Shown here piece by piece: positions 1,513 to 53,706 of a stretch of 64,000 nucleotides of DNA. Within the stretch, counting starts at the first letter, position 1; each line of letters begins with the position of its first letter. The translations under genes and the position numbers were made by a program. The notes below the pieces were generated by a model. It made no database searches. It was not told the origin of the DNA and saw only the letters and a list, made by a program, of their open reading frames with translations. The stretch comes from an uncultured Bacillales bacterium (GTDB taxonomy: Bacteria > Bacillota_I > Bacilli_A > RF39 > UBA660), in contig CAMUXV010000001.1 in NCBI GenBank assembly GCA_947164795.1, positions 20,580-84,579 of the forward strand, written 5' to 3'.

Positions 1513-2274
1513 ATGTATATAGATACACACTGTCATATATATAAAGAATATTATAATAGTATAGATGATGTTATTAATGAGAGTAAAGCAAATGGTGTCA
1601 CTAGATTTATTGTTAATGGCTGTGATATGAAAAGTAATAAAGAGTCATTAGATCTTGCTCATAAATATGAGGAGGTATATGCAGCGATTGGTTTTCATCC
1701 TACTGAATTAAATGATTTTAAGGATGAATATTTCGATTGGCTAGAAGAACATATTAATGATAATAAAGTAGTAGCTATTGGAGAAATAGGACTAGATTAT
1801 CATTATGATGATACGGATAAAGAGAAAGAAATTTATGTATTTAGAAAACAACTTGATATTGCTAAGAAATATAATAAACCTATTATTGTCCATACTAGGG
1901 ATGCAATAGGAGATATCTTTCAAATACTGAAAGAATATAATTTAAGAGGTAGTATTCATTCTTATAGTGGTTCTGTAGAAATGGCTAGAGAGTTTATTAG
2001 ACTTGGATATATGATAGGTATCGGTGGAGTAATTACTTTTAAAAATGCTAAAAATATTAAAGAAGTGGTAAAAAATATTGATTTAGAATATATATTATTA
2101 GAGACAGATAGCCCTTATTTGACTCCTGAACCTTATAGGGGTACTCCTAATAGTCCTAAATATATTCCTTATATTGCAAAGGCTATTAGTGATATTAAGG
2201 ATGTTAATATTAATGATATTAGGAGGACTACTACTGGTAATGCAGAAAGGTTATTTGACTTTTCTAATAAATAA
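1513..2274 (+). CDS. tatD: TatD-family metal-dependent DNase/hydrolase
   Basis: MYIDTHCHIY... His-rich TatD motifs; GGAGG RBS; conserved metG-tatD synteny of Firmicutes. Confidence 0.9.
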   Translation: MYIDTHCHIYKEYYNSIDDVINESKANGVTRFIVNGCDMKSNKESLDLAHKYEEVYAAIGFHPTELNDFKDEYFDWLEEHINDNKVVAIGEIGLDYHYDDTDKEKEIYVFRKQLDIAKKYNKPIIVHTRDAIGDIFQILKEYNLRGSIHSYSGSVEMAREFIRLGYMIGIGGVITFKNAKNIKEVVKNIDLEYILLETDSPYLTPEPYRGTPNSPKYIPYIAKAISDIKDVNINDIRRTTTGNAERLFDFSNK

Positions 2275-2317
2275 TGATACAATTAATATGCTTATAAAAT
2301 ATTAATGAGGTGAGACA

Positions 2318-3040
2318 ATGAAAAAAAATCTTGCTAAGGTTATTACTATTTCTTGTTTGCTTTTAGTAGTTAGTTTATTTTTAGTAGTATTATTTTCTGG
2401 TAATAGGAGTAATAATACTATGGTTTATGTTGTTGATAACAATAACTTGAATAAGATGGATGAAAATACTTCGATTCTTTTTGAAAAGAAAGAATTAGAT
2501 GATATTAAAGAGGATACTAAAGAAGAAATAATTGATGATAAAGAGGAAGAACAGGTAGTAGAAGAAATCGTTATTATTGAAGAAGAAAAAGAAGAAGCAA
2601 GCGAAGTAGTTCAAGAACCAAAGGTAGAAGAACCTCAAGAAGAAGAAAAGGAAGAACCAGTGGTTACTAGTTTATCAGAGGAGAGAGAAGTTATTCAGAC
2701 TGTTGTAGGTAATTTGACCGGATATGGTCCTGATTGTGTTGGATGTGGTGGACACACTAGTACTGGTTTTGATTTGACTAAGTCTATTTATTATGATGAT
2801 AGTGAATTTGGAACTGTTAGAATATTAGCAGCGGATCCTTCGTTTCCTTTTTACTCAATATTTAGAGTAAGTAATGTTCCTACGATGGATGATTTTATTG
2901 GTATTGTTCTTGATAGAGGTGGAAATGTTGGATTTGGTAGAGGTACTTTATTTGATTTGGCTTTTGAAAGTGAAAGCTCTCCTAACCTAATACCTTTAAC
3001 TCGTAATGTTACATTTGAATTATTGAGAAGTGGTAAATAA
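2318..3040 (+). CDS. 3D-domain (MltA-like) cell-wall protein, YabE-like, with N-terminal TM helix and acidic E-rich linker
   Basis: C-terminal 3D-domain-like region (GYGPDCVGCGGHTSTG...); position after tatD as yabE in Bacillus. Confidence 0.65.
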   Translation: MKKNLAKVITISCLLLVVSLFLVVLFSGNRSNNTMVYVVDNNNLNKMDENTSILFEKKELDDIKEDTKEEIIDDKEEEQVVEEIVIIEEEKEEASEVVQEPKVEEPQEEEKEEPVVTSLSEEREVIQTVVGNLTGYGPDCVGCGGHTSTGFDLTKSIYYDDSEFGTVRILAADPSFPFYSIFRVSNVPTMDDFIGIVLDRGGNVGFGRGTLFDLAFESESSPNLIPLTRNVTFELLRSGK

Positions 3041-3104
3041 CTACTTCTTTTTTTGACAATTATTTCTTTATGTATATCATATACTTAATGTGGAGATAAT
3101 ATAT

Positions 3105-4025
3105 ATGAGGAAATTATTTATTTATACTTTGATTATGATTTTTATTCCATTTATTATTGTTACAATATTTAATGTTAATAATAAGGAGGAGATTTTTTTA
3201 AATTACTCGTCTAATATTATTATTAGAGTTAAAAGAGTAAATACTGATGAAATAGAGTATTTGCCTCTTGAAGAATATATTGTTGGTGTTCTTGCAGGAG
3301 AAATGCCTATTTATTTTGAAAAGGAAGCTTTTAAAGCTCAGGCGGTAGCGGCGAGAAGTTATGCTTTAAAAAGAATAGAGTATAATAAAAATGAAAAATA
3401 TGATGTCGTTGATTCTATTATGAATCAAGTATATTTGGATTATAACTATTTAAAATCTGCTTGGGAGGATGAATATATAGATAATATTAATAAACTTAGA
3501 GAAGTTGTTAATGAAACTTCAAACGAGTATTTAGAATATAATGGTGAGGTAATTGATGCTTTATTCTTTTCGACGAGTAATGGATATACCGAAGATTCAT
3601 CTTTGGTTTTTGATCTTAATTTACCATATTTAGTTAGTGTTAAGTCCTCTTGGGATGAAAAAACTTCAAGTGCTTTTAGAAGTAGAATGTCATTTTCTTT
3701 AAGTGAATTTTATAATAAATTGGGTCTTAATTATAATGATTACCTGAATGTTAAAATATTGAAAAGAAGTAGTACTAATAGAGTTATCAGTCTTAATATT
3801 AATGGAGTTGAATTTAATTCTAGAGATTTATATAATAAATTGGGATTAAAATCTACTGATTTTTCAATTAAACAAGAGAATAATAGTGTTATTATTGATA
3901 TGGTTGGTTATGGTCATGGAGTTGGTATGAGTCAGTATGGGGCAGAAGGTATGGCGGAAGAGGGTTATTCTTATATCGATATACTTAAATACTATTACAC
4001 GGGAACTAATTTAAAAAAATTTTAA
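3105..4025 (+). CDS. spoIID: SpoIID/LytB-domain lytic transglycosylase (alternative GTG start at 3090)
   Basis: AQAVAARSYAL motif characteristic of SpoIID family; N-terminal TM; GGAG RBS 9 nt before ATG 3105. Confidence 0.8.
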   Translation: MRKLFIYTLIMIFIPFIIVTIFNVNNKEEIFLNYSSNIIIRVKRVNTDEIEYLPLEEYIVGVLAGEMPIYFEKEAFKAQAVAARSYALKRIEYNKNEKYDVVDSIMNQVYLDYNYLKSAWEDEYIDNINKLREVVNETSNEYLEYNGEVIDALFFSTSNGYTEDSSLVFDLNLPYLVSVKSSWDEKTSSAFRSRMSFSLSEFYNKLGLNYNDYLNVKILKRSSTNRVISLNINGVEFNSRDLYNKLGLKSTDFSIKQENNSVIIDMVGYGHGVGMSQYGAEGMAEEGYSYIDILKYYYTGTNLKKF

Positions 4026-4724: not shown

Positions 4725-4836
4725 GCAGTAAAATGCCTTTTTTTACATAAGATTTACAATTTGTGTAAAAAACGTTAAAATTGGTACTAAAAATTAGTAA
4801 AATGTGGTAAAATGTTTATGAGGACGGTGATTACCA

Positions 4837-5829
4837 GTGTTTAATAAAGATATCGGAATAGATTTAGGAACCGCGAATGTGCTTATATATGTTAAAGGAC
4901 AAGGTATTGTTCTTAATGAGCCTTCAGTAGTTGCAATTGATGCGGATACTAAGAGACCTTTGGCTGTTGGTAGTGAAGCTCATGAAATGCTTGGTAGAAC
5001 ACCTGGTAAAGTAAAAGCAATTAAACCAATGAAGGATGGTGTAATAGCAGATTTTGAAACCACTGAAATTATGCTTAATTATTTTATTAAAAAAATTAAT
5101 GGTAAGAGTTTCTTTTCTAGACCTAGAATATTAATTTGTTGTCCAAGTAATATTACGCAAGTTGAAAAGAATGCTATTAAAGAGGCTGCTGAAAGAACTG
5201 GCGCTAAGAAGGTTTACTTGGAAGAAGAACCTAAAGTTGCTTCAATTGGCGCAGGAATGGATATTTCAAAGCCTAGCGGAAATATGGTTATTGACATTGG
5301 TGGTGGTACTACTGATATTGCTATCTTGTCTTTAGGAGGAGTTGTTAATAGTTCTTCAATTAGAATTGCTGGTAATGCATTCGATAATGATATTGTAAAG
5401 TATATTAAGGATAAATATAAACTTTTGGTAGGAGAAAGAACTGCTGAAGATATTAAAATTACTATTGGAACTGTTTTCCCTGGTTCAAGGAATGAGAAAA
5501 TGGAAGTTAGAGGAAGAGATTTAGTAACAGGGCTTCCGCATACTATAACTTTAACTAGTGATGAAGTTGAAGAAGCTTTAAGAGAAAGTGTTTATACTAT
5601 AATTCACGCTGTTAAGGGAATACTTGAACAAACACCTCCTGAATTATCAGCGGATATTATTGATAAAGGAATAGTTCTTACTGGTGGTGGTGCTATGGTA
5701 GATGGCTTTTCTCAAATACTCAGTCAAGAACTTAAGGTTCCAGTATTTATTGCTGAGTCGCCTCTTACTTGTGTAGCAGAAGGAACAGGAATTCTTTTAG
5801 ATAATTTATATATGCTAGAAAGACAATAG
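4837..5829 (+). CDS. mreB: rod-shape determining actin homologue MreB/Mbl (GTG start)
   Basis: IGIDLGTANVLIYVKG... phosphate-1 motif, full-length MreB similarity. Confidence 0.9.
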   Translation: MFNKDIGIDLGTANVLIYVKGQGIVLNEPSVVAIDADTKRPLAVGSEAHEMLGRTPGKVKAIKPMKDGVIADFETTEIMLNYFIKKINGKSFFSRPRILICCPSNITQVEKNAIKEAAERTGAKKVYLEEEPKVASIGAGMDISKPSGNMVIDIGGGTTDIAILSLGGVVNSSSIRIAGNAFDNDIVKYIKDKYKLLVGERTAEDIKITIGTVFPGSRNEKMEVRGRDLVTGLPHTITLTSDEVEEALRESVYTIIHAVKGILEQTPPELSADIIDKGIVLTGGGAMVDGFSQILSQELKVPVFIAESPLTCVAEGTGILLDNLYMLERQ

Positions 5830-5899
5830 AGATATTGTTTTTCTTTTTTTTATAATAAAAAAAAGAAAAATAGTTTTTTTACTATTTATCTTAATATCA

Positions 5900-7339
5900 T
5901 TATGAATTTCTTCTTCCACCAGAATGATGTGATAGGCTAGAAAAAATTTCTTCTTCGACATCTTTACTATTTATGATAGATATTGGCGTTCTATTACAAT
6001 ATATTTTATACTGTTTAATTGGATTATCATCCTTTTTTATGAATACTCCTAGTAATACATACTCATTATCTTTTAGATGTTTATAGGTTATTCTTATTTG
6101 ATCATCTCTTATTTCGGATATTCCAGGATAGGCTTCGTTTAATGGCTTTGTTTGAGATGGAAATAATCTGTTTTTTCTAAATAGCATTAGTAGTTCTTTA
6201 ACACTATTATATGTATCTTTAGGAATGTCTTTTAAATCAGATTCCAAGTATGAAATTCCTGATTTTTTTAATCCATAATGTAATATATTTGTATCTTCTT
6301 CTTTTTCTTCAATAGTTTTAATATCTTGATTGTATTTTTCTATTTCATTATCCATGATTTTTCTTATAAATATGTAATTTTGTAAAGCTTCTTTGTATAA
6401 AGTTAATAGTGTATTTCGATATTCTTTATCTTCATAATGTTCTAAATTATTTAATTCTTTATAAACTTCTAATAATTCTTCTTGATAATGTTTTAATAAA
6501 CTTATATATAGATATCTAACACTATTCAAAGAATAATTCTCACTAAAAGTTAGATTTCCTTTGTATTTTGGTAGCAGTTCTGGTGTAATATTTTCATCGA
6601 TTCCTTGATGCATAATTACATTTATTAATGAGTCTATTTGTGATTTTCTTTTGTCTTCAAGCCATGTTATGTCTTCAAATTCTTCAAATCCTGATAGAAT
6701 AATATTAGTTATTTCATTAAGTTTATTATAATTTATCTTTTTATTAATATCAATATGTGATCTTATATTGTGATTTTTTACTTTTTCTAATAAAAGTATT
6801 ATTTCTTTTTCTTCTAAATTCTTTCTTTTAAACAATTCTAATAGTATTTTATAATCTCCTGATGTTATCTTTTGATTGAATTTTAGGTTATGTATTATTA
6901 ATTTATATTCTTGCATTATTTGATCAGATATAATTGGTTTGGTAAAAACAAGTTCTGCTTGTAATTGCTCTAATATTGTATTTAGTTTGTTTATTAGATT
7001 TTTTATGTATTTTTTCCCTTTATCTAAATCTGATTTTAGGTATTTTTCGGGATTGTTTGTATAACTATTACTATTATAAATTGCTTTATATAAAGAGTTT
7101 AATATATTTTGGGATGTTTCTTTTGTTGTACTAAAAAATATTGGGATTATTGAATCAAATAGTATGTAATTTTCTTTCATATATTCATAGTTCTCAGATT
7201 CTAATATCTTAATCATTTCTTCGAGCATACTAATATTTGATTGTAAGTCTTTTTGTTTATTTATTTTATCATAGTAGTCTTTTATTTCTAGATATAATAG
7301 TTCTTTAATTAATGAAATATTTAGATTTTTACTTTCCAT
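5900..7339 (-). CDS. hypothetical K/E-rich coiled-coil protein with RelE/ParE-like C-terminal domain
   Basis: long ORF, no recognisable N-terminal family; C-terminus KPLNEAYPGISEIRDDQIRITYKHLKDNEYVLLGVFIKKDD resembles RelE/ParE/HigB toxin core. Confidence 0.5.
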   Translation of the reverse strand: MESKNLNISLIKELLYLEIKDYYDKINKQKDLQSNISMLEEMIKILESENYEYMKENYILFDSIIPIFFSTTKETSQNILNSLYKAIYNSNSYTNNPEKYLKSDLDKGKKYIKNLINKLNTILEQLQAELVFTKPIISDQIMQEYKLIIHNLKFNQKITSGDYKILLELFKRKNLEEKEIILLLEKVKNHNIRSHIDINKKINYNKLNEITNIILSGFEEFEDITWLEDKRKSQIDSLINVIMHQGIDENITPELLPKYKGNLTFSENYSLNSVRYLYISLLKHYQEELLEVYKELNNLEHYEDKEYRNTLLTLYKEALQNYIFIRKIMDNEIEKYNQDIKTIEEKEEDTNILHYGLKKSGISYLESDLKDIPKDTYNSVKELLMLFRKNRLFPSQTKPLNEAYPGISEIRDDQIRITYKHLKDNEYVLLGVFIKKDDNPIKQYKIYCNRTPISIINSKDVEEEIFSSLSHHSGGRRNS

Positions 7340-38385: not shown

Positions 38386-38815
38386 GTTTATTATAATTAT
38401 ATAGTGATAAAATTAATATAAATTATAATTATCAATTTAAATATTAAGCAGTGGTGCAAATAATGCTACTGTTTTTTTATATAAAAAAATCTTTATATTA
38501 ACTGTAAACCAACTGATAGTAAATAGCACAATGTTTCTACAAAAAGTTATAGATTTTTCTTCAAACAGGTTATATCTTGCAATTACAGAAGATATGTGAT
38601 ATAAAAAAACAAACCACTAGGGTTTGCTTATGTCAACATTGGAGCGATTGATTAAGTTATTTCAAACTATTTCACTAATGAAAAATCAATAGTTCTATCA
38701 ATTTCTAATAATATTCTAACACAGAAATTATTTTTTGTACATATTTTTTTTAGAATTGTTTTGGCTCTACTTGACACATCATAAAAATTATTTTATTATA
38801 ATAAGCAATTTAGTG

Positions 38816-38845
38816 ACACAAATATATATGATTTGTGTTATACTA
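38816..38845 (+). promoter_or_regulatory. promoter with long inverted-repeat operator ACACAAAT-N7-ATTTGTGT overlapping -10 (TATACT)
   Basis: 8-bp perfect IR arms directly upstream of Panacea gene. Confidence 0.4.
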
Positions 38846-38870
38846 AAATTGTAATAGGGAGGATTGAAAA

Positions 38871-39386
38871 ATGAAAAAGGAGGGCATTTTTTCAGCTTTA
38901 GATTTGGCAAAATACATATGCTATATGTATTATAAAAAATATAAAAAAGATATATCTCCAATAAAATTGCAAAAATCATTATATTTTTGCTTTGCATATT
39001 GGGGTGGTTACGTACGAAAAAACAATAAAAACAAAAACTTTGTTGAAGAAAGAATTTCTTTAAGTGAATATCTATTTGATGATACATTTAAAGCTTGGGT
39101 TTATGGACCAGTAATTCCAGAAATTTTTAAAAAATATAAAAACAAAAATATTGATTATGCAGATTTAGATGTTGATTGTATTTTTGACAAAACTAATATT
39201 ACAGTAAAAGAGGCTATAGATAGTTTACTTAATGAATTGTTTGAAGTTAGTGATTTTAAACTTGTTAGTATTTCACATGAAGATGAATGCTGGAAAAATC
39301 ATTTTGATATCTTTGCAGATGATCATGATGAAGATATTCCACCAGAAGAGATAATAAATGAATATGCACTTAGGAAAACAGTTTAA
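38871..39386 (+). CDS. Panacea-domain (DUF4065, GepA/SocA-like) putative antitoxin
   Basis: KLQKSLYFCFAYWGG ... AWVYGPVIPEIF pattern characteristic of DUF4065; GGGAGGA RBS. Confidence 0.6.
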   Translation: MKKEGIFSALDLAKYICYMYYKKYKKDISPIKLQKSLYFCFAYWGGYVRKNNKNKNFVEERISLSEYLFDDTFKAWVYGPVIPEIFKKYKNKNIDYADLDVDCIFDKTNITVKEAIDSLLNELFEVSDFKLVSISHEDECWKNHFDIFADDHDEDIPPEEIINEYALRKTV

Positions 39387-39927
39387 ATCAAATCGATTTG
39401 ATAAACCTAATATTGATAAAACTAACCATATTAAAGATAGGAAAAGTTTTGGATTTGGTGAAGATATATTTGATTTTGACGATGCTTTAAAATCAGTGAA
39501 TATAAGTTGTTTGGAATTTACTAATTATTTTCATGATAGAAAAGATGTTAAATTTAAATTTGTAAAAAAAGAATATAATAGATTACTAAACCAACGAGTG
39601 AATTTAGATGATGAATATGAAATGAAAATTGTGAATACAGAGGATGGATTTAATGGATTAAAATTAAAAATGATTTATTCAGATACTTTAGGTAAAGAAG
39701 TAAGAGATTTTCCACTTATGTATAAATTAAAAAATCTCGCAAATAATGAATTGCAATTTTATGTTAAAAATGAAAATAGTAAGTATAAGGTTTGTTTTAT
39801 TGACATTTTCCATTTGGCAATACCTACCAAGCAACAAAATACAAAAGCTATGTATGAAGTTAATTCTTGTAACACATATGGACTAGATCATTTAAGAGAA
39901 GAGAAAAAGATAAAAGTATTAAATTAA
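39358..39927 (+). CDS. hypothetical protein overlapping Panacea gene by 29 nt; candidate cognate toxin
   Basis: translationally coupled downstream ORF, no recognisable family. Confidence 0.45.
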   Translation: MNMHLGKQFKSNRFDKPNIDKTNHIKDRKSFGFGEDIFDFDDALKSVNISCLEFTNYFHDRKDVKFKFVKKEYNRLLNQRVNLDDEYEMKIVNTEDGFNGLKLKMIYSDTLGKEVRDFPLMYKLKNLANNELQFYVKNENSKYKVCFIDIFHLAIPTKQQNTKAMYEVNSCNTYGLDHLREEKKIKVLN

Positions 39928-40058
39928 CATTTTTAAATTATATTGTTGACAAAACCATATATTTTAAATTATATTGGCTTGTCAACATTTTTAATTCTTA
40001 CAAAATTCAGTATTTAAGTTAATTGCTAATGCTATTTTTTTAATGATAAATATGTTTT

Positions 40059-40502
40059 TTAAAATTTATTATTACTTCTACCAAGTATATAATCAATAGA
40101 ATATTTACTATATTTTGATAAACTAATTAATATCTCACAATTAATTAGTTTTTCTCCTCTTTCATAACTACCAAGAGATGAAAAAGAACAATTTAAAGCA
40201 TTACCTAAACTTCTTAATGATAGTCCTAATTCTTTTCTTATTTCTTTTAATCTATTACCAATAAGTTCTAAATCTAAAGTATAAGTTTCTTCAATATTTT
40301 TTCTTATATCTGTAAGTTTTAGCATATAATCTATATTAACATTATAGAAGTTAGCTAACTCTGCTATTCTTCTAGTAGGAATAGGAATTTTATTATGTTC
40401 CCATTCAGAATAAGTAGATTCATTAACACCAAAATAACTTGCTACTTCTCTTGATTTTAAATTTCTTTCCACTTTTAAATCTTCTAAACGATTCTCATTC
40501 AT
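40059..40502 (-). CDS. XRE-family repressor with two tandem HTH domains (phage cI-like)
   Basis: two HTH_XRE units (LKSREVASYFGVNESTYSEWE.. and LRSLGNALNCSFSSLGSYERG..). Confidence 0.8.
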   Translation of the reverse strand: MNENRLEDLKVERNLKSREVASYFGVNESTYSEWEHNKIPIPTRRIAELANFYNVNIDYMLKLTDIRKNIEETYTLDLELIGNRLKEIRKELGLSLRSLGNALNCSFSSLGSYERGEKLINCEILISLSKYSKYSIDYILGRSNNKF

Positions 40503-40570: not shown

Positions 40571-40588
40571 CACAATTTGTGATATAAT
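40571..40588 (+). promoter_or_regulatory. divergent promoter with palindromic operator CACAATTTGTG fused to -10 GATATAAT
   Basis: 11-bp palindrome in repressor/40594 intergenic region. Confidence 0.4.
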
Positions 40589-41583: not shown

Positions 41584-42846
41584 GTGAAAGAAAAAGTAAA
41601 AAATGAAAAACCGTTATATACAATTGAAAGTATTATTGATGGTGATGAATATAAAAAAATGGCTAGATATTTTCCTCAAATGTATTGGGCCTATGTTATA
41701 TACGGGACAATATTAAATTTGTTTTTTTCTTTGTTGATAGCAGTTTTCTCTGAAAGCCTAATTTTTACATTGATTTTTTTAGTACTTTATCAATCATACA
41801 TAATGATACTTTATAAAATCAGATTAGAGCACTATGCTGAAAAATCTTTTAATAGAATGGTAAAAAAAGGCAGAATAGATACAGAGGTCCATTCTGAATT
41901 TTATAATGACTTTTTTATAAGACAAAGTGAAACCGTAGCATATAAGATTAAATATATTGATATTGATAGATGTGTTGAAACTGATTCGAGTTTTTATTTA
42001 AAATATGGGAAAAAGAATATAATAATTATTATTCAAAAAAATGAATGTGATTTAGAATTAATTAATTTTATCCGAGAAAAATTTAATAATTTAGAAAAGC
42101 ATATTGGTGATAATTCCAATTTTAAAGGTGTAAAAAAATATAATAATCCTTCCTTTATTAAAAATTTTATGATTATATTATTTGCTTTAACAATATCAAG
42201 TTTATGGGGAGCACTATATTCAATGAACTTAGTTAGCGAAATAATACCACAACATGGATTTAATTTCACTAAAAATAATTGGGTATTCTGGTGTTGGTTA
42301 CCGATTCCAATACTTTCTATCATTCTTGGCTTTAAATATAAAAGTGCAGGTTTTAAATGTACAAAAAATGTAGTAAGTGGCTTTATAATAGGATTTTTAC
42401 TATTAATATATGGATCTTTTTGTTTGCTTCCAACATTTTCACAAGAGTATGATAAGATAAATGATTACAAAGATATAATAAATGCAAAAATACCAGAAAA
42501 GGGCGAACTTGAAATACAAAATTGGGGAACATATTTTGATGAGGATAAGACAAACTATACTATCATAAATGCCTACTATGACAAAGAAGATGTTGGTGAT
42601 TTAGTAAGTAGTATTAAAAATAACAATAATTGGATTTTAAGCAAAGAAATAAAATCCGAATTAAAGACTTTGATACCATCACAACTTAAATCTGATGATG
42701 ATGCATATTTTTCTATTTATAATAAAACTGCAAATAAATACAATTCCTTACCTGAAGAATCAGGTGAATATGAAGTATATGCCATGAAATATGATGAGTC
42801 TGATAAACATTTAGAAATACATAAGTTTAATTTATTGTATAAATAA
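41584..42846 (+). CDS. hypothetical polytopic membrane protein (420 aa; 2 TM + cytoplasmic module + 4 TM + C-terminal soluble domain)
   Basis: hydrophobicity pattern; RBS GAGGTGATGA. Confidence 0.5.
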   Translation: MKEKVKNEKPLYTIESIIDGDEYKKMARYFPQMYWAYVIYGTILNLFFSLLIAVFSESLIFTLIFLVLYQSYIMILYKIRLEHYAEKSFNRMVKKGRIDTEVHSEFYNDFFIRQSETVAYKIKYIDIDRCVETDSSFYLKYGKKNIIIIIQKNECDLELINFIREKFNNLEKHIGDNSNFKGVKKYNNPSFIKNFMIILFALTISSLWGALYSMNLVSEIIPQHGFNFTKNNWVFWCWLPIPILSIILGFKYKSAGFKCTKNVVSGFIIGFLLLIYGSFCLLPTFSQEYDKINDYKDIINAKIPEKGELEIQNWGTYFDEDKTNYTIINAYYDKEDVGDLVSSIKNNNNWILSKEIKSELKTLIPSQLKSDDDAYFSIYNKTANKYNSLPEESGEYEVYAMKYDESDKHLEIHKFNLLYK

Positions 42847-42877: not shown

Positions 42878-43537
42878 ATGGTTAAAGAAAAACAAAATCC
42901 TAAAGAATGGGAAATAGGTGACACATTCTATTATCAAGCTAAGGATTATAATAAAGAATTAAATTGTAAGTATATAATTTTTATTAAATCAGGAATAGTT
43001 AATAATGCACCTCTATTTAGAGTAAAAGTGACTAAAGATAGTAAATTACCGCGGACAATAGAAGAATTAGAAAGTATAGATTATGCTAGAACTGGGCTTG
43101 TTATATGGGAAAGCAGATTTCTACCACTTGATGGAAATATACCAGATAGACAGTTAATACTTGAAAGAAATAAAGTTAAATTTTATCCTGATGAAAATGG
43201 ATTTTTATATATTTATCAAGTTTCAATAGATATAAAGTCTAAGAGAAGTATACCAAAGGAGTGGGGATATTTAGGTAAATTTGATTTATCTCTTCCAAAA
43301 GACGAATTTATCCCATTCAGTTTAGGAAATATTTGGGGATTTATATGGAACATTGGTAAAAATTGGTTTTTTGATAGACTTTTAATGTATAATAGCGAGA
43401 AAAAAGAATATATTGAACATGCTAAAAAAAGAAGAGTACAGGAAATTGGCGCTATGAAATTGATTTTATCTTATAATTCTAGAAACTCAAAAGAAGAAGT
43501 AGATGAACTAATGGATATTATAACTGCTGTTAAGTAA
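42878..43537 (+). CDS. hypothetical protein (219 aa)
   Basis: RBS AAGGAG; no family. Confidence 0.45.
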   Translation: MVKEKQNPKEWEIGDTFYYQAKDYNKELNCKYIIFIKSGIVNNAPLFRVKVTKDSKLPRTIEELESIDYARTGLVIWESRFLPLDGNIPDRQLILERNKVKFYPDENGFLYIYQVSIDIKSKRSIPKEWGYLGKFDLSLPKDEFIPFSLGNIWGFIWNIGKNWFFDRLLMYNSEKKEYIEHAKKRRVQEIGAMKLILSYNSRNSKEEVDELMDIITAVK

Positions 43538-43610
43538 ATTTTATATGGTATTATCTTTAAAGATAGTAAATTACTTTTGTTTTTGTAATTATGGAGAGGA
43601 GGATTAATTT

Positions 43611-44105
43611 ATGAAGAAAAGTAATGTGATTATAATTTGTATATTAGTAGTAATTATTATTTGTTTAATTGGAGGGCTATTTTATTTAAATAATTATTAT
43701 GTAAATCAAATAGATTATATATTCTATACAACAAAAGTAGATGAAACAAAAAGTAAGGAATATGATTGTAGTTTTACTAAAACATACAGGGTGGTAAATT
43801 TATTAGATGGTTATATTGATGAGGTTCCAGACTGGTCTTATATAATATTAGATCAATTTCAAAATCATAGTGCTATAGCTATTAGAATACCATCATTATT
43901 GAAAAATAAATTACAAGAAAACAAATATTATGAATTTACTTATACCATTAAAGGTAGTGATAAAATCATTAGCACGATGGAAGATATTAATAAATATTTA
44001 GTGTTAGATGAAAGTACTGCTGATTTAAAAGTAACATTAAATATAAAAGAAACGGACAAACAAGGATTAGAGCAGGTACAAGAAAATATATGTTTGCCTA
44101 AATAA
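43611..44105 (+). CDS. membrane-anchored protein sharing C-terminal domain with regulator 36714..37787
   Basis: N-terminal TM; C-terminal HSAIAIRI..YYEFTYTIK..NIKETDKQGLEQVQEN vs GDTAMVRI..NYEFTFINY..DIKETDRVGLEQVNES. Confidence 0.5.
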   Translation: MKKSNVIIICILVVIIICLIGGLFYLNNYYVNQIDYIFYTTKVDETKSKEYDCSFTKTYRVVNLLDGYIDEVPDWSYIILDQFQNHSAIAIRIPSLLKNKLQENKYYEFTYTIKGSDKIISTMEDINKYLVLDESTADLKVTLNIKETDKQGLEQVQENICLPK

Positions 44106-44117
44106 AGGAGAGATGAT

Positions 44118-44471
44118 ATGTATAATTTTTCTTTACTAAAAAATGAAAAAGTAATTGACGTGTTTGATGATATATGGGTTAGTCAAAATGAAAATGAGAA
44201 GATGACAACAGTGGCTTTAACAAATCAAAGATTATTATTTTTAGATTATAATAATAATGATCCACGAGATAATTTAAGAATTGGTAGAGGCATGGAATAC
44301 ATAAGATATAAAGAAGTTTATCATTCAATAATGTTGCAAGATATCAAAGATGTAACTGACGTTTATATTCTTAATTTAAAAAAAGGCTGTGATATTAAAT
44401 TTGATAATGAGGAATTATGTAATCTCATAAAAAAAGAAATCAAAAATGTTGCTAATGATAATGCTAGTTAA
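44118..44471 (+). CDS. hypothetical protein (117 aa)
   Basis: RBS AAGGAGAG; no family. Confidence 0.4.
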   Translation: MYNFSLLKNEKVIDVFDDIWVSQNENEKMTTVALTNQRLLFLDYNNNDPRDNLRIGRGMEYIRYKEVYHSIMLQDIKDVTDVYILNLKKGCDIKFDNEELCNLIKKEIKNVANDNAS

Positions 44472-44573
44472 ATAAGAAATAATGATTGAATAGAGAAATC
44501 TATTCTTTTTATTATTTAAAAGAGAAGAAATTATTGCGAAGATCAACAACAAAGAACAAAAGAAATAACAGAT

Positions 44574-44631
44574 TTGACAAGAACAAACATTTGTGCTATT
44601 ATAATTCTCATCTCAGTGAGGGGGAAAAGAA
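44574..44631 (+). promoter_or_regulatory. promoter cassette P1: TTGACA-17-TGCTATTAT with palindromic operator ACAAACATTTGT in spacer, AGGGGGAA RBS
   Basis: near-identical to cassettes at 45092 and 46080. Confidence 0.55.
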
Positions 44632-45042
44632 ATGAATAATAACATGGAATTTAAGATTAATTATGCAAATATGAGATCAATTATTTCTAACTATTTTAAG
44701 TCTCAAGGAAGAGATGTAACTGTTACTATTAGTTCTAACATTGACACAGATAGATTTAAGGGAACAGTTGACACAATAGTTACTGTGTACGAAAAAGTAA
44801 TTATTGCTGGTGTTGAAACAACTACAAAGAAAATACTTTGGCTTGATGATTTAAAGGAAATTATAAGCGAATCATTATCGCAAGAAAATAAAGAACTAAT
44901 TGACTTAACAAGTGATGCATATTCTTACACGTCAGTAGAAGGTGCATATATGGGAGAATATAGAGAAACTAAAATTGGTGGAAAGACTTTTACAGTCACT
45001 GTAAAAGAAAAACAAAATGTTAAAATGAAAGAATTAAAATAA
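44632..45042 (+). CDS. hypothetical protein (136 aa)
   Basis: ORF directly behind cassette P1. Confidence 0.45.
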   Translation: MNNNMEFKINYANMRSIISNYFKSQGRDVTVTISSNIDTDRFKGTVDTIVTVYEKVIIAGVETTTKKILWLDDLKEIISESLSQENKELIDLTSDAYSYTSVEGAYMGEYRETKIGGKTFTVTVKEKQNVKMKELK

Positions 45043-45091
45043 GCAAATGATTACAATTTATCATAATGTACAAAATATTAAAATTTTGTAT

Positions 45092-45144
45092 TTGGCAAAA
45101 CAAATATTTGTGCTATTATATGGCACGTTTTAGGGGGAATATAT
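45092..45144 (+). promoter_or_regulatory. promoter cassette P2: TTGGCA / perfect palindrome ACAAATATTTGT / TGCTATTAT / AGGGGGAA
   Basis: read from sequence. Confidence 0.55.
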
Positions 45145-45957
45145 ATGAATATGAATTATTTAGTTTTATGGATAGGAACAATTATTGGTAGTTTTGGAGC
45201 AGAATTAGTGAATGAACTTAGAATGTTTAAGGATATTGCGGATGCAGGATACAAAGTTGATTTGCAAAAAATGGCAGATTTTCAAAAAAAATTGATGCCT
45301 GATGCAAATAAGGTAAATCTTTTATCGATGTTGATACCTGTATATAACATTATGAATGTTTGCAAAAATATAATTAATTATAATAATGTTAGACCAATGC
45401 TATTAGATCAATTAAATGTAATGGGAGTGCTAGAAGAAATGTCTTCATATGAAAAAGAAGAATATTCAAAAAAACCAACTGCTTTAAATGCATTTATAAT
45501 TCCATTAAAGACAGAAATAAAACTTGCAAATGCTCTTAAATTAACAACAACTGATGATAATGGAACAAACATATATTATATTGATTACAATAAAAAGAAA
45601 GGTTTTACTTTGTTAAAGGTTGATGGTCCAGACTCTATGCTGCCTTTTGAGGAACAAGAGAAAAGAGCTAAGGAAAAGATGTATAATCTTGGTAAACATG
45701 TAAGAGATAATTATGGCACTGCTGAAAATTATTTAAAATCTCTTGATAATAATTCGAAAGAATTTCAAGAAGAAGGAAATATAGTTGTACCTACTAAAGC
45801 TGAGTTAAACAATGATGAAATAAAAGAAGAAACAAAACAAACTCAAATAGCAGTAGAACAAAAAGAAGAAGTTCAAGCAAATGAGTTAGAAGAAACGAAT
45901 ATAGAAGATAATACTATTCATAAACCATTAATAAGAACTAGAAAAATTAAAAGGTAA
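45145..45957 (+). CDS. hypothetical protein (270 aa), N-terminal hydrophobic helix, E/K-rich C-terminus
   Basis: ORF directly behind cassette P2. Confidence 0.45.
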   Translation: MNMNYLVLWIGTIIGSFGAELVNELRMFKDIADAGYKVDLQKMADFQKKLMPDANKVNLLSMLIPVYNIMNVCKNIINYNNVRPMLLDQLNVMGVLEEMSSYEKEEYSKKPTALNAFIIPLKTEIKLANALKLTTTDDNGTNIYYIDYNKKKGFTLLKVDGPDSMLPFEEQEKRAKEKMYNLGKHVRDNYGTAENYLKSLDNNSKEFQEEGNIVVPTKAELNNDEIKEETKQTQIAVEQKEEVQANELEETNIEDNTIHKPLIRTRKIKR

Positions 45958-46079
45958 TATCTAATACGGAAATATAGAAAAAACTATATTTCTTTTTTTA
46001 TAATTTTTTATCAAAAGAATATTATTAAAGAGTTTTAGATTATTTTAGTATAAGATTTTTGTTTAAAATTTTGTTTGAT

Positions 46080-46132
46080 TTGACAAAAGCAAACATTTGT
46101 GCTATTATATTTCTCGTTTAAGGGGGAATACT
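46080..46132 (+). promoter_or_regulatory. promoter cassette P3: TTGACA / GCAAACATTTGTGC / TATTAT / AAGGGGGAA
   Basis: read from sequence. Confidence 0.55.
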
Positions 46133-47136: not shown

Positions 47137-47955
47137 CTATGTCAATACTTTTTGACGATTTTCTTTAGATTTTGAATTGGAGTTTGTTTGTGTTTTTGTC
47201 ATTTTAATTTCTTCAAAAGCATAATATTTTTTGATTATTTTAAGGATTTCATCATTATCTTTTTTACTAATCGTGGCTATTTTATTATTAATAAAATATG
47301 GTTCTTTTATTCTATTGGCACTTATATTAATTAAGTTTTCTATTCTTGCAGTACCTAATTTTTCATCTTTCAAATCATGGTGAAAATAATAATTATCATC
47401 TTTATGCTTTGAAGTAAGTGGTATTGCAGTCCACATTTTTTTATTTGATGAACTTCTCCATAATATTGCAGGTCTTAATTTTCTAAGTTCATTACCAATA
47501 TTATATCCTAAATTAACCCAGCATATTGCACCAACTTTAAGATTAGTAAGTGTATTATCTTTATTTATTAATTCTAGCTTATCTTTACACCATTTATTAT
47601 ATGATATTCCATCTGGATCATTATTTGTATTATCTTTGACATATTTTAAAAAATTATCTTTTGATTTTAAAAGTATTTCATCAAATTCTTTATTAGTTAT
47701 TTTTAATGGTTTACCTTTTATATAAATACATCTTTTAATATTAGTTCTATTATAGTCATTTATTTCATTAAATGAGGCATATTTATTAATTGATTTAAGA
47801 TATATGCTATCTTTTCTATTATCATTATAAATAGATATCCCTACATAGTGATTTTGAGAAATATCATAGAGAATTAAAATCCATTGCACATTTTCATTTA
47901 TACTAACTTCATATACTTGTTTCCAATTAATTGTAAGCATATTTTTTATCACCAA
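47137..47955 (-). CDS. MazF/PemK-like toxin domain fused to ~135-aa N-terminal unknown domain
   Basis: KVGAICWVNLGYNIGNELRKLRPAILWRSS...WTAIPLTSKH aligns with PemK/MazF core (GdIvwvdfdP..G.E..k.RPavVvS..vcPiTs). Confidence 0.55.
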   Translation of the reverse strand: MVIKNMLTINWKQVYEVSINENVQWILILYDISQNHYVGISIYNDNRKDSIYLKSINKYASFNEINDYNRTNIKRCIYIKGKPLKITNKEFDEILLKSKDNFLKYVKDNTNNDPDGISYNKWCKDKLELINKDNTLTNLKVGAICWVNLGYNIGNELRKLRPAILWRSSSNKKMWTAIPLTSKHKDDNYYFHHDLKDEKLGTARIENLINISANRIKEPYFINNKIATISKKDNDEILKIIKKYYAFEEIKMTKTQTNSNSKSKENRQKVLT

Positions 47956-47982: not shown

Positions 47983-49326
47983 TTATCTTTCAAAGTCATC
48001 CTCTTTTTCAATATAATTTTCATTTTGAATTGTATCTAAATCATTATCATCTATAATTTCTTCGTCATATAGTTCATTAATTAAATCATCATATTTATTT
48101 GAAGAGAAGAATTTATCTTGGAAGAACTCTATAAATCTTTTCCATAAATCTTTAAAATAATCTAATGCTTCTTGTAATTTAGATACTTTATCTTCTAACA
48201 TATCAATAGTATCATTAGCAAACTCTAATCTGTTTTCTAAATCTTCAATTCGCTCATCACGATTATAGATTTTTTTATTTAGTTCATTTACTTCGTTAGT
48301 ATGATTTTTTAAATCTTCTTCATATTTATTTAAAATAATAGTTACATCATTTGCTTCTCTTATATTTGAAGTAGTACTTTTAGTTTGCTTAACATATTCT
48401 TTTATTTCTTCAAGATTATCACTAGATATAGTATAGTTATTTTTATTAATTACTGTTGGTTTTAAGTTATCAACTAAATCATTAATATGATTAGATTTAT
48501 CTTCTAATTCAGTAACTTTATTATTTAATTCTTGTAATTTCTTTTTATGTATATCTTTTTCTCGTTTAAATTTTTTATATTCATTCATATTAGCAACATT
48601 AATATCAACATTTCTTCCTTCTTCTTTTGCTTTGAGTGAGTAATTTAAATTATAAATTTTATTAAAAGAATTAATACAATATTCTCTCATTTTATCTTGA
48701 ATATCTACTAGACTAACTTTAGTAAAGACATCTGATTTACCAACTTGTACTTGCATACCATTTTTTAGTCCTTCTTTAAATGGAACACCAACAATATGTA
48801 AATGAGGACTAGATTCATCAAAGTGTATGGTCGCATTTGCTACTTTAAAATTAGGAACAACTTTTTCTAAATCAATTATCTGCTGTTTATAAACTCCGAT
48901 CATTTTTTTCTTAAATTCATCATCTTTATCAGCCCAAAAATCCATATCTCCAAGTTCAATAATTATCTCACAAGCAAGATCTCTTTTATTATCATTTGAA
49001 ATATGATTAAAATAATTTTCTATCTTTCTGTCGTTTCTAGTTTGTTTATTATTATACTTTTCTTTAGCATCTTCAAATAATTCTAAATACAAGTTTTTAG
49101 TGTCTTCTACTAGAGATGATGTTCCTTTAATAGTGCATATTAATTCTTTCTCATCATCGTATTTTCTTAAATTATGTCTATCTACTTTTGATAACTGCTG
49201 GTGATTTTGAATAGCATTATTAGATAGTGATGTAGTATTTGTATTATTTGTTTTGGCTACCTTCCTTGCTTTTTTCGATTTGTTTTTATCATTACCTAAA
49301 TGTAATGAATATGATAATTCTTCCAT
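47983..49326 (-). CDS. mob: MobV-family (Pre/Mob) relaxase / plasmid recombination enzyme
   Basis: NATIHFDESSPHLHIVGVP matches MobV HxDE..PHxH motif; long coiled-coil C-terminus typical of MobM-like proteins. Confidence 0.7.
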   Translation of the reverse strand: MEELSYSLHLGNDKNKSKKARKVAKTNNTNTTSLSNNAIQNHQQLSKVDRHNLRKYDDEKELICTIKGTSSLVEDTKNLYLELFEDAKEKYNNKQTRNDRKIENYFNHISNDNKRDLACEIIIELGDMDFWADKDDEFKKKMIGVYKQQIIDLEKVVPNFKVANATIHFDESSPHLHIVGVPFKEGLKNGMQVQVGKSDVFTKVSLVDIQDKMREYCINSFNKIYNLNYSLKAKEEGRNVDINVANMNEYKKFKREKDIHKKKLQELNNKVTELEDKSNHINDLVDNLKPTVINKNNYTISSDNLEEIKEYVKQTKSTTSNIREANDVTIILNKYEEDLKNHTNEVNELNKKIYNRDERIEDLENRLEFANDTIDMLEDKVSKLQEALDYFKDLWKRFIEFFQDKFFSSNKYDDLINELYDEEIIDDNDLDTIQNENYIEKEDDFER

Positions 49327-49609: not shown

Positions 49610-51631
<2,022 letters not shown>

Positions 51632-52254: not shown

Positions 52255-52328
52255 TGGAGCAGGTGATGAGAATCGAACTCACGCAGTCAGCTTGGAAGGC
52301 TGAGGTTCTACCATTAAACTACACCTGC
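52255..52328 (-). tRNA. tRNA-Gly (anticodon UCC)
   Basis: reverse complement GCAGGTG-TAGTTTAATGGTAGAAC-TCAGC-CTTCCAA-GCTGA-...-GTTCGATTC-...-CACCTGCTCCA gives cloverleaf with anticodon loop CUUCCAA. Confidence 0.85.
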
Positions 52329-52483
52329 ATCAGTAGGCATAATTAATGATACTATACTTTTCTTTGTTTGTCAACTGTCTTTCGAGCGTTTTTTGTTAAA
52401 ATTTACATTTTTATCGGTGTTTGTAAGTAAATATACTATTACTATATTGAAATATTTTAAAATAATGTTATAATTAAGTTACA

Positions 52484-52606
52484 TCTTATAAAGAGTGATG
52501 GAGGGACTAGCCCTATGAAGTCACACCAACCTATTAGATTAGGTGGTAATGCTAGATCTATAAGGTAACTTTTTTCTGCTCAAGAGTTATCTTGGGTATT
52601 TTTTAT
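52484..52606 (+). ncRNA. SAM-I (S-box) riboswitch with intrinsic terminator, leader of metK
   Basis: TCTTATAAAGAGTGATGGAGGGACTAGCCCTATGAAGTCACACCAACC matches S-box core (AUCAAGAG.GG.GGAGGGA.UGGCCC.AUGAA.CC.GCAACC); terminator CAAGA-GTTA-TCTTG + T-run. Confidence 0.7.
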
Positions 52607-52680: not shown

Positions 52681-53706
52681 ATGAAATTATATAGTAATGA
52701 AATTGTTTTTAGGGGTCATCCTGATAAGGTATGTGATCAGATTAGTGATGCCTTATTAGATGTATATTTGAAAGGTGATAAAAATAGTAGGTGTGGTATA
52801 GAAGTAGCAGGGGGTAAAGGTAAGATATTTATAACTGGAGAAGTTACTAGTAGTATTATGGTTGATACTGAAAGTATAGTCAAAAGAGTTCTTTCTGATA
52901 TTGGATATAGTACTGATTATGAAATAATTGATAATATTGGTAAACAAAGCTCTGATATTGCTCTTGGTACTAATATGAAAGTAGGAGGGGCTGGAGATAA
53001 TGGTATGATGTTTGGATATGCCTGCAGGGATACTAAAGAATTACTTCCTACTGCTATGGTGATATTACAAAAACTTAGTATGTGGTATGATGAACTTAGA
53101 AAGAAAGATAAGAGATTTTTACCTGATGGTAAAGCACAAATTACTGGGTTATATGATAACTATAATAAACTAATTAAAATTAAGACTTTTACGGTTTGCT
53201 ATCAAAATAGGGAGGATGATAGAGAAAAGACTGATAAGATTATTATGGATAAGTGTAGGTCTATTTGTGGTGAATATGGAATAAATATAGAAAAATTTTT
53301 AATTAATCCGACTGGTAGATTTTATATTGGTGGATTTGAAGGGGATGCTGGTCTTACTGGTAGAAAGATAGTAGTGGATAGTTATCAGTCTTTTGCTCCT
53401 GTTGGAGGAGGTGCTTTTTCAGGAAAGGATCCGTCTAAAGTAGATAGAAGTGGTGCTTATAAAGCTAGAGAGATTGCTAAAAGAATTCTTTTATCTAATG
53501 ATAATTATAAATGGTGCCAGGTACAAATTTCTTATGCTATTGGTAAAGAAAAACCTCTTGCTATTTATATTGAAACGGATAGGGGTAGTATTAAAGTAGA
53601 TGATAGTTTGTATGAAGAATGTAAGCCTAGAATTATTATTAATGATTTAAAATTACTAGATGTCTGCTATGAAGAAAAAGCTAGATTTGGTCATTTTAGA
53701 GATTAA
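52681..53706 (+). CDS. metK: S-adenosylmethionine synthetase (compact, 341 aa)
   Basis: GHPDKVCDQISDALLD, GAGDNGMMFGYA, GGGAFSGKDPSKVDRSGAY signatures. Confidence 0.9.
   Translation: MKLYSNEIVFRGHPDKVCDQISDALLDVYLKGDKNSRCGIEVAGGKGKIFITGEVTSSIMVDTESIVKRVLSDIGYSTDYEIIDNIGKQSSDIALGTNMKVGGAGDNGMMFGYACRDTKELLPTAMVILQKLSMWYDELRKKDKRFLPDGKAQITGLYDNYNKLIKIKTFTVCYQNREDDREKTDKIIMDKCRSICGEYGINIEKFLINPTGRFYIGGFEGDAGLTGRKIVVDSYQSFAPVGGGAFSGKDPSKVDRSGAYKAREIAKRILLSNDNYKWCQVQISYAIGKEKPLAIYIETDRGSIKVDDSLYEECKPRIIINDLKLLDVCYEEKARFGHFRD

Follow-up and report, generated by a model that had tools for sequence, protein, structure and literature searches.

What kind of system is formed by a gene for a Panacea-domain protein and a downstream gene that it overlaps, when the product of the latter matches no model in the standard family libraries? 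The question is raised by a locus within a 64,000-nt stretch of DNA (the window) from an uncultured Bacillales bacterium (GenBank assembly GCA_947164795.1, contig CAMUXV010000001.1, positions 20,580 to 84,579 of the forward strand). Here panA, encoding a stand-alone Panacea (DUF4065) protein and putative antitoxin of 171 aa (38871..39386, + strand), is followed by a panT-like partner gene for a soluble putative toxin of 189 aa (39358..39927, + strand). Both open reading frames were found exactly where an earlier reading of the bare sequence (the original prediction) had placed them, under the heading of a candidate new toxin–antitoxin pair. The locus is read here, with moderate confidence, as a type II toxin–antitoxin module of the PanAT kind, and its partner as a putative toxin related to T16, a toxin cluster predicted by Kurata et al. 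(2022; PMC8832971).

The Panacea protein

The assignment of the 171-aa protein to the DUF4065/Panacea family, as originally proposed, was borne out by Pfam, in which the SocA_Panacea model PF13274 scored 37.9 bits, above its gathering cut-off of 25.7 (E = 3.8e-9), with support from PHROGs, where residues 7-166 matched phrog_1281 at 2e-29. The NCBIfam SocA equivalog NF047745 gave the same protein 45.5 bits against a cut-off of 190, and PanA of the window therefore carries the Panacea domain without being an orthologue of SocA. SocAB of Caulobacter is a type VI toxin–antitoxin system in which SocA, the founding DUF4065 protein, acts as a ClpXP adaptor rather than by toxin sequestration. The Panacea domain is common to SocAB and the window pair, which departs from the former both in this sub-threshold score and in having a partner without similarity to SocB or any other described family. 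Panacea was the sole domain detected in PanA, no DNA-binding domain being found in Pfam at E values up to 0.1, and by this architecture the protein belongs to the “noNTD” (stand-alone) class of PanA described by Kurata et al. (2022; PMC8832971). A strong Shine-Dalgarno sequence, AGGGAGGA (38856..38863, + strand), can be read 7 nt 5' of the PanA ATG.

Overlap and linkage of the two genes

Counted from the first ATG of the partner, the two genes overlap by precisely the 29 nt reported at the outset (39358..39386, + strand). The overlap shortens to 23 nt, and the partner to 187 aa, when the conserved Met at 39364 is taken as the start, as its equivalent is in 15 of 17 close homologues. The panT start codon or codons lie in the +1 frame within the codons of the conserved PanA C-terminal motif I(I/L)xEY. 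With its start codon embedded in the end of panA, synthesis of the partner would probably be tied to translation of the antitoxin, and translational coupling of the two genes is the arrangement that the sequence suggests.

The same organisation recurs throughout the family. Twelve lineages, namely the window, L001, L004, L006, L015, L016, L018, L019, Brochothrix phage BL3 (L011), Lactococcus phage bIL312 (L012), L027, and L030, retain both an intact partner and its upstream DNA, and each of the 12 has a Panacea gene directly 5' of the partner, a co-occurrence that the original prediction had named as a check on its claim. The overlap spans 14-35 nt with the partner in the +1 frame every time in the 10 of 10 lineages measured, while in L027 and L030 the Panacea gene overlaps or directly abuts the partner. 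By the FlaGs criterion of Kurata et al. (2022), the pair constitutes a conserved two-gene locus (12 of 12 lineages, with a spacing within 100 nt). Divergence of the two proteins also runs in parallel, with PanA and partner identities co-varying at r = 0.85 over 45 pairs that are not independent of one another. In addition, PanA is acidic (pI 5.2) and the partner basic (pI 8.9), a charge pairing consistent with the pattern typical of toxin–antitoxin pairs.

The only partner copies found without a Panacea gene (L008:100-700, L009:4900-5500, L013:1990-2365, and L014:3900-4500) belong to one lineage and are decayed. In these copies, panA and the first codons of the partner have been replaced, leaving the latter truncated at its 5' end and carrying a 26-nt frameshifting deletion, beside a tRNA-His/att-like junction. 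The intact counterpart of this lineage, L022, keeps the end of the PanA gene 5' of the partner. Such decay fits a partner that does not stay intact without its antitoxin, though it represents a single event.

The partner family and its link to cluster T16

The partner could not be assigned to any known family, as had been claimed for it: nothing matched in Pfam (to E 0.1), NCBIfam, PADLOC, or PHROGs. Exact-sequence look-ups of PanA and the partner found neither window protein on record. Among 71 full-length members of the partner family, no Pfam family recurred, with only scattered single chance hits. The family profile found no match among all PDB sequences, and a tblastn search with the partner found none in 50,697 phage records; the phage relatives discussed below were reached only via the neighbouring Panacea gene and by profile methods. 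A word-indexed search returned 17 close homologues with identities of 53-100%, and a hidden Markov model (HMM) search of 1.84 billion cluster representatives extended the family to 95 clusters (50% identity; E up to 1e-3), which with few exceptions are stand-alone proteins of 170-210 aa (about 180 aa). When collections of genomes, metagenomes, and viruses were scanned with an alignment of the close family, only 1, 2, and 1 loci emerged, respectively, all from the decayed lineage.

Conservation across the 71 members is concentrated in a few positions (189-aa numbering). S46, D149, and H152 are invariant, F54, N56, and Y166 are near-invariant, and positions K/R102 and K123 are basic almost without exception, with (L/F)-I-D-(L/I)-(Y/F)-H-L-x-I-P as the family signature. 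The family is basic throughout, its median pI of 9.3 standing beside the 8.9 of the window protein, and it carries no transmembrane segment. The partner represents a genuine conserved family.

Two phage proteins connect this family with earlier work. Profile comparison by hhalign matched it to bIL312 Orf25 (NP_076825.1) at 96.9% probability (E 1.7e-10; family HMM E 2.4e-12) and to BL3 gp25 at 94.4% (family HMM E 9.3e-10), and each of these proteins is encoded by a gene overlapping an upstream gene whose product passes the Panacea model. Dataset S1 of Kurata et al. (2022; PMC8832971) lists the bIL312 pair NP_076824.1/NP_076825.1 (Orf24/Orf25) as a PanA with a predicted PanT of cluster pT17/T16, in antitoxin-then-toxin order with an overlap of -35 and marked “notest”, together with eleven further T16 pairs, mostly from Bacilli. 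The link to T16 runs solely through bIL312 Orf25, and T16 itself may be heterogeneous, because Streptococcus phage P9 pairs its Panacea gene with a membrane protein that bears no relation to the present family.

The window pair shares with the PanAT T16 entries (Kurata et al. 2022, PMC8832971; Ernits et al. 2023, PMC10440598) a PF13274 antitoxin without an N-terminal domain, overlapping genes with the antitoxin first, a partner homologous to bIL312 Orf25, and an occurrence in Bacilli-type hosts and their temperate phages. It differs from the catalogued phage members in belonging to a branch only 19-23% identical to them, drawn from very low-GC (about 25%) gut-type Bacillota. A close parallel in organisation is offered by BL3, whose Panacea gene (gp24) and overlapping 208-aa partner (gp25) lie between an endolysin and a serine integrase; the pair is annotated without function, and gp25 is only about 19% identical to the window partner. 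Thus, of the claim to a new toxin–antitoxin pair, the Panacea-type pair on mobile DNA stands, whereas the novelty of the toxin does not: the family was catalogued already in 2022 as the predicted and unnamed T16. None of the findings that the original prediction had named as refuting it emerged. A literature search for more recent PanAT work led back to the PNAS papers of Kurata et al. (2022) and Ernits et al. (2023) alone.

Predicted fold and activity of the partner

Structure prediction, which had been proposed as a means of classifying the partner, gave a confident AlphaFold model (pLDDT 85.7 and pTM 0.81 from a 17-sequence alignment) with disorder restricted to residues 1-15 and 184-189, but its Foldseek matches in the PDB were not significant (best E 0.38). 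Toxins of the RelE/ParE superfamily nevertheless lead that list, and in a comparison with 48,164 chains they account for 25 of the best 60 structural matches, with ParE structures ranking under RelE, YafQ, and HigB. The sole significant fold match, found in BFVD, was D7RWK8 (E 7e-6), a 208-aa phage protein that is most likely BL3 gp25 because it has the same length.

From residue 87 onwards, the model consists of a strand, a long helix, a three-stranded meander, and a C-terminal helix, an order that resembles RelE with the single long helix standing in for a helical hairpin. The first meander strand bears the conserved Y-K-x-K of the family and the second bears Q133, residues that recall the strand of RelE carrying K52, K54, and R61. 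The core of the partner, approximately residues 60-170, would accordingly be of RelE/ParE-like alpha/beta topology and wrapped by the conserved N-terminal extension. The best structural matches to this modelled C-terminal core (RelE, YafQ, HigB, YoeB, and MqsR) are, like the partner, small, basic, and soluble. The partner is unlike them in its length, which is about double theirs, in a conserved N-terminal extension of 60 residues, in its S, D, and H invariants, and in lacking sequence or profile similarity to them.

A membrane-disrupting mode of action is ruled out by the solubility of the partner. The best single guess, and a tentative one, is that it may be a RelE-fold toxin that cleaves RNA or otherwise targets translation, in which the likely active residues would be K123/K125 and Q133 of the sheet, together with the turn formed by the invariant D149-x-x-H152. 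The guess of a translation target is favoured because translation is the commonest target of the validated Panacea partners (Kurata et al. 2022, PMC8832971), and the known partners already include MqsR-like and ParE domains (same reference).

Several observations weigh against this picture and should be given fair hearing. No RelE, ParE, HigB, or YafQ match was found in Pfam for the window protein, or recurrently for the 71 members, and hhalign gave less than 1% probability when the family profile was compared with P. vulgaris HigB, E. coli RelE, and E. coli MqsR as individual sequences, those of HigB and RelE having been verified in the PDB. The N-terminal extension, which RelE toxins lack, houses S46, F54, and N56, half of the six best-conserved residues. 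As to toxicity as such, neither PanA nor the partner was scored as a defence component by PADLOC, and the decayed copies may be explained by one event that removed panA and the 5' end of the partner together, which makes them weak evidence of toxicity. All 12 T16 rows of Kurata et al. (2022; PMC8832971) are marked “notest”, and the sole HHpred entry for T16 there is the uninformative “50S ribosomal subunit (51.5%)”.

The account that draws most on these points keeps the PanAT module and gives up the RelE-type ribonuclease. The likeness in fold would then be a coincidence arising from a generic helix-on-antiparallel-sheet roll, and S46, D149, and H152, with N56 and Y166, would form another active site (that of a hydrolase, a transferase, or a metal site) directed at another target. 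It is favoured by S, D, and H being the only invariants over the 71 members, by the position of S46, F54, and N56 outside the RelE-like core, by the missing profile similarity to RelE, HigB, and MqsR, and by the many unrelated folds recorded among proteins paired with Panacea (Kurata et al. 2022, PMC8832971). The over-representation of RelE/ParE toxins among the best structural matches speaks against it, as do the conserved basic residues on the strand of the model equivalent to the one bearing K52 and K54 in RelE; it is regarded as unlikely, though with a real share of the probability.

A more distant proposal abandons the toxin–antitoxin reading altogether, making the partner a non-toxic phage or island accessory, for instance one of superinfection exclusion or regulation, that acts together with the Panacea protein, so that the linkage reflects a two-subunit function. 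Ten pairs predicted by NetFlax proved to be non-toxic in E. coli (Ernits et al. 2023, PMC10440598), which together with the PADLOC result lends it some substance. It accounts poorly for the antitoxin-first overlap, the acidic/basic charge pairing, the strict co-occurrence and co-divergence, and the decay of the sole Panacea-less copies, and nine of the Panacea pairs that Kurata et al. (2022; PMC8832971) put to the test proved to be genuine toxin–antitoxin systems; the proposal is therefore held to be improbable. Most improbable of all is a ParE-like poison of DNA gyrase in place of an RNase, given that ParE toxins are not enzymes and the invariant Asp and His with the conserved Lys, Gln, and Tyr suggest catalysis, that ParE structures rank under those of RelE, YafQ, and HigB, and that no ParE_toxin match was found in Pfam for the window protein or the 71 members.

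Mobile island and prophage context

The original prediction had put the pair at the edge of a mobile island, and the genes to its right support this placement. The window pair is positioned to the left of a small mobilisable island that holds a convergently transcribed double helix-turn-helix (HTH) regulator of 147 aa (40059-40502), a membrane protein of 420 aa with a YcxB-like domain (41584-42846, + strand; PF14317, 24.1 bits against a cut-off of 23.3), a MazF-like protein of 272 aa (47137-47955, - strand), a Mob_Pre relaxase (47983-49326), and a large serine recombinase (49610-51616), with a tRNA-Gly at 52255-52328. A radical-SAM protein and unknown genes are also present; the island genes at 42878-45957 gave no Pfam hits at all. 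Attachment sites or direct repeats flanking 38.4-52.3 kb were sought and nothing convincing was found.

The MazF-like protein, which adjoins the relaxase and recombinase genes, carries its PemK/MazF domain at residues 140-243 (E 2.8e-10) behind an unassigned N-terminal part of 140 residues, and this domain layout would suit a second toxin, or a toxin fused to its antitoxin, on the same island. Past the tRNA-Gly, an S-adenosylmethionine (S-box) riboswitch (52483-52566, + strand; 65.3 bits against a gathering score of 44.4) lies 5' of the gene at 52681-53706.

Related pairs are found mostly at prophage ends, after the holin and endolysin genes and before an integrase or the junction with the host, a placement based on L001, L004, L006, L019, and BL3. 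In two distant relatives the neighbours are other genes of defence type: the pair in L018 adjoins a HinP1I-type restriction-modification system (DNA methylase and R.HinP1I; 4810-6523), and that in L015 lies downstream of a reverse transcriptase gene (RVT_1; 2050-3378). Among further phages carrying a Panacea gene, the Streptococcus satellite phage Javan462 (L024:2234-2872) encodes a weak and distant member of the partner family, Javan462_0023, with the motif FFDPYHLFI. The Panacea partners of Streptococcus phage P9 (L023:2253-3062) and Listeria phage LP019 (L026:2244-3173) are multi-pass membrane proteins, and the Panacea gene of phage phiAT3 (L025) has no annotated partner. The Panacea genes at the lysin/integrase junctions of these Bacillota phages illustrate the swapping of partners at one genomic position.

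Control of the operon

Two promoter-like elements precede panA. The distal one, a sigma-70-like TTGACA-17-TATTAT (38771..38799, + strand), agrees with 11 of 12 consensus positions in a consensus scan; promoter-like sites show no enrichment in this AT-rich region (18 found against 23 expected), and it is a consensus match only. The proximal one, TTTGTG-T-TATACT (38832..38844, + strand), combines a -16 “TRTG” with an extended -10, and a TGn-extended -10 about 25-35 nt 5' of the start codon can be read in most of the related leaders. Its generalised form, TTTGTGnTATWMT, occurs six times in 64 kb against 0.14 expected, a 40-fold excess, and five of the six copies fall within 38.8-46.1 kb, at the panA promoter and four island promoters. 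This clustering of TTTGTGnTAT copies suggests that the pair belongs to the island element.

Downstream of the distal element, and overlapping the proximal one with its right arm, lies the perfect 8-bp inverted repeat ACACAAAT-N7-ATTTGTGT (38816..38838, arms 38816-38823 and 38831-38838), which had been put forward as the operator of an autoregulated module. The repeat is exactly as described and a candidate operator by its form; the regulatory role attached to it gained no support. Perfect repeats of at least 8 bp arise in 2.7% of shuffled versions of the 170-nt leader and in 5.2% of real 170-nt segments of this sequence, so that this one is mildly unusual but not compelling. It is single-copy in the window at up to 3 mismatches and missing from 10 of the 11 other related leaders, of which only L006/L007 carry a repeat, a different one of 7 bp. 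Stand-alone Panacea proteins are not known to bind DNA. The repeat was set aside as a PanA operator for want of support, given its lack of conservation, its 3-5% chance level, and the absence of a DNA-binding domain from PanA, and autoregulation through it is likewise unsupported, Ernits et al. (2023; PMC10440598) having argued that a role for Panacea in transcriptional autoregulation is improbable.

Its right arm forms part of the TTTGTGnTAT element that the repeat region shares with four island promoters, which points either to the island's own regulator or to mere promoter architecture. Compact palindromes with similar half-sites are carried by four island promoters, namely CACAA-T-TTGTG at 40571 and ACAAA-CA-TTTGT at 44585, 45102, and 46091. 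A 46-nt promoter-like repeat (GATTTGACAA..ACAAACATTTGTGCTATTATA) occurs three times, at 44571-44616, 45088-45133, and 46077-46122 (also 40571-40588), each copy just 5' of an island gene and with a small palindrome over its -16/-10 region. These repeats look like a common operator/promoter set for an island regulator, and control of the panA operon by the HTH regulator of the island is a reasonable, putative alternative to autoregulation.

Downstream of the partner stop codon, a hairpin at 39944-39986 followed by TTTTT forms the probable intrinsic terminator of the operon (39944..39993, + strand), with a folding energy of -15.7 kcal/mol (z = -5.5) that none of 200 shuffled sequences equalled in stability; the hairpin and T-run 3' of the partner therefore argue for a bicistronic operon. 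The same DNA, between the convergent partner and HTH genes, is a 40-bp imperfect palindrome, TTGACAAAACCATATATTTTAAA / TTTAAATTATATTGGCTTGTCAA (39946-39985), which folds as the terminator and could alternatively be a protein-binding or recombination site because of the two TTGACA-like hexamers inside it. No RNA family of Rfam was detected at the panA/partner locus. Upstream, in the 485-nt gap 5' of panA, two terminator-like hairpins face each other (38446-38474, + strand, and 38607-38629, - strand), and no annotated minus-strand gene ends at the latter; this second hairpin may correspond to the boundary of the island or to a small transcript absent from the annotation.

Proposed mechanism and significance

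On the PanAT reading, the locus would be a self-contained two-gene operon comprising the promoter region (38771-38844), panA, panT, and the terminator (39944-39993). Given that stand-alone Panacea antitoxins neutralise their toxins by direct binding (Ernits et al. 2023, PMC10440598), neutralisation of the basic, soluble 22-kDa partner by the acidic PanA would probably proceed, by analogy, through the same direct contact, and the partner, if the modelled fold is a guide, may be an RNA-cleaving or otherwise translation-targeting enzyme. The module would travel as accessory cargo, at the prophage lysin/integrase junction in its relatives and at the left edge of a mobilisable island here, and it probably serves the maintenance of the element, abortive-infection defence against phages, or both.

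A bolder version of this proposal, doubtful as a whole, may also be entertained. The T16-type partner might represent either a RelE-like scaffold with a so far undescribed variant of catalysis or an altogether new toxin activity, marked by the invariant Ser...Asp-x-x-His and the N-terminal wrap, and act as an abortive-infection effector borne on prophages and islands, with the operon controlled by a repressor of the element through the CACAA/TTTGTG palindromes rather than through autoregulation by the antitoxin.

The window provides a well-delimited representative of a predicted Panacea-associated toxin family, with a confident model and a set of key residues (S46, K123, D149, H152, and Y166), while the lysin/integrase junction of Bacillota prophages emerges as the genomic signature of the family. 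At 95 clusters, the family is about eight times the size of the 12 entries of 2022. An active toxin would bring the Panacea network a further validated partner, possibly a divergent enzyme of the RelE fold, and the advance would be an incremental rather than a conceptual one.

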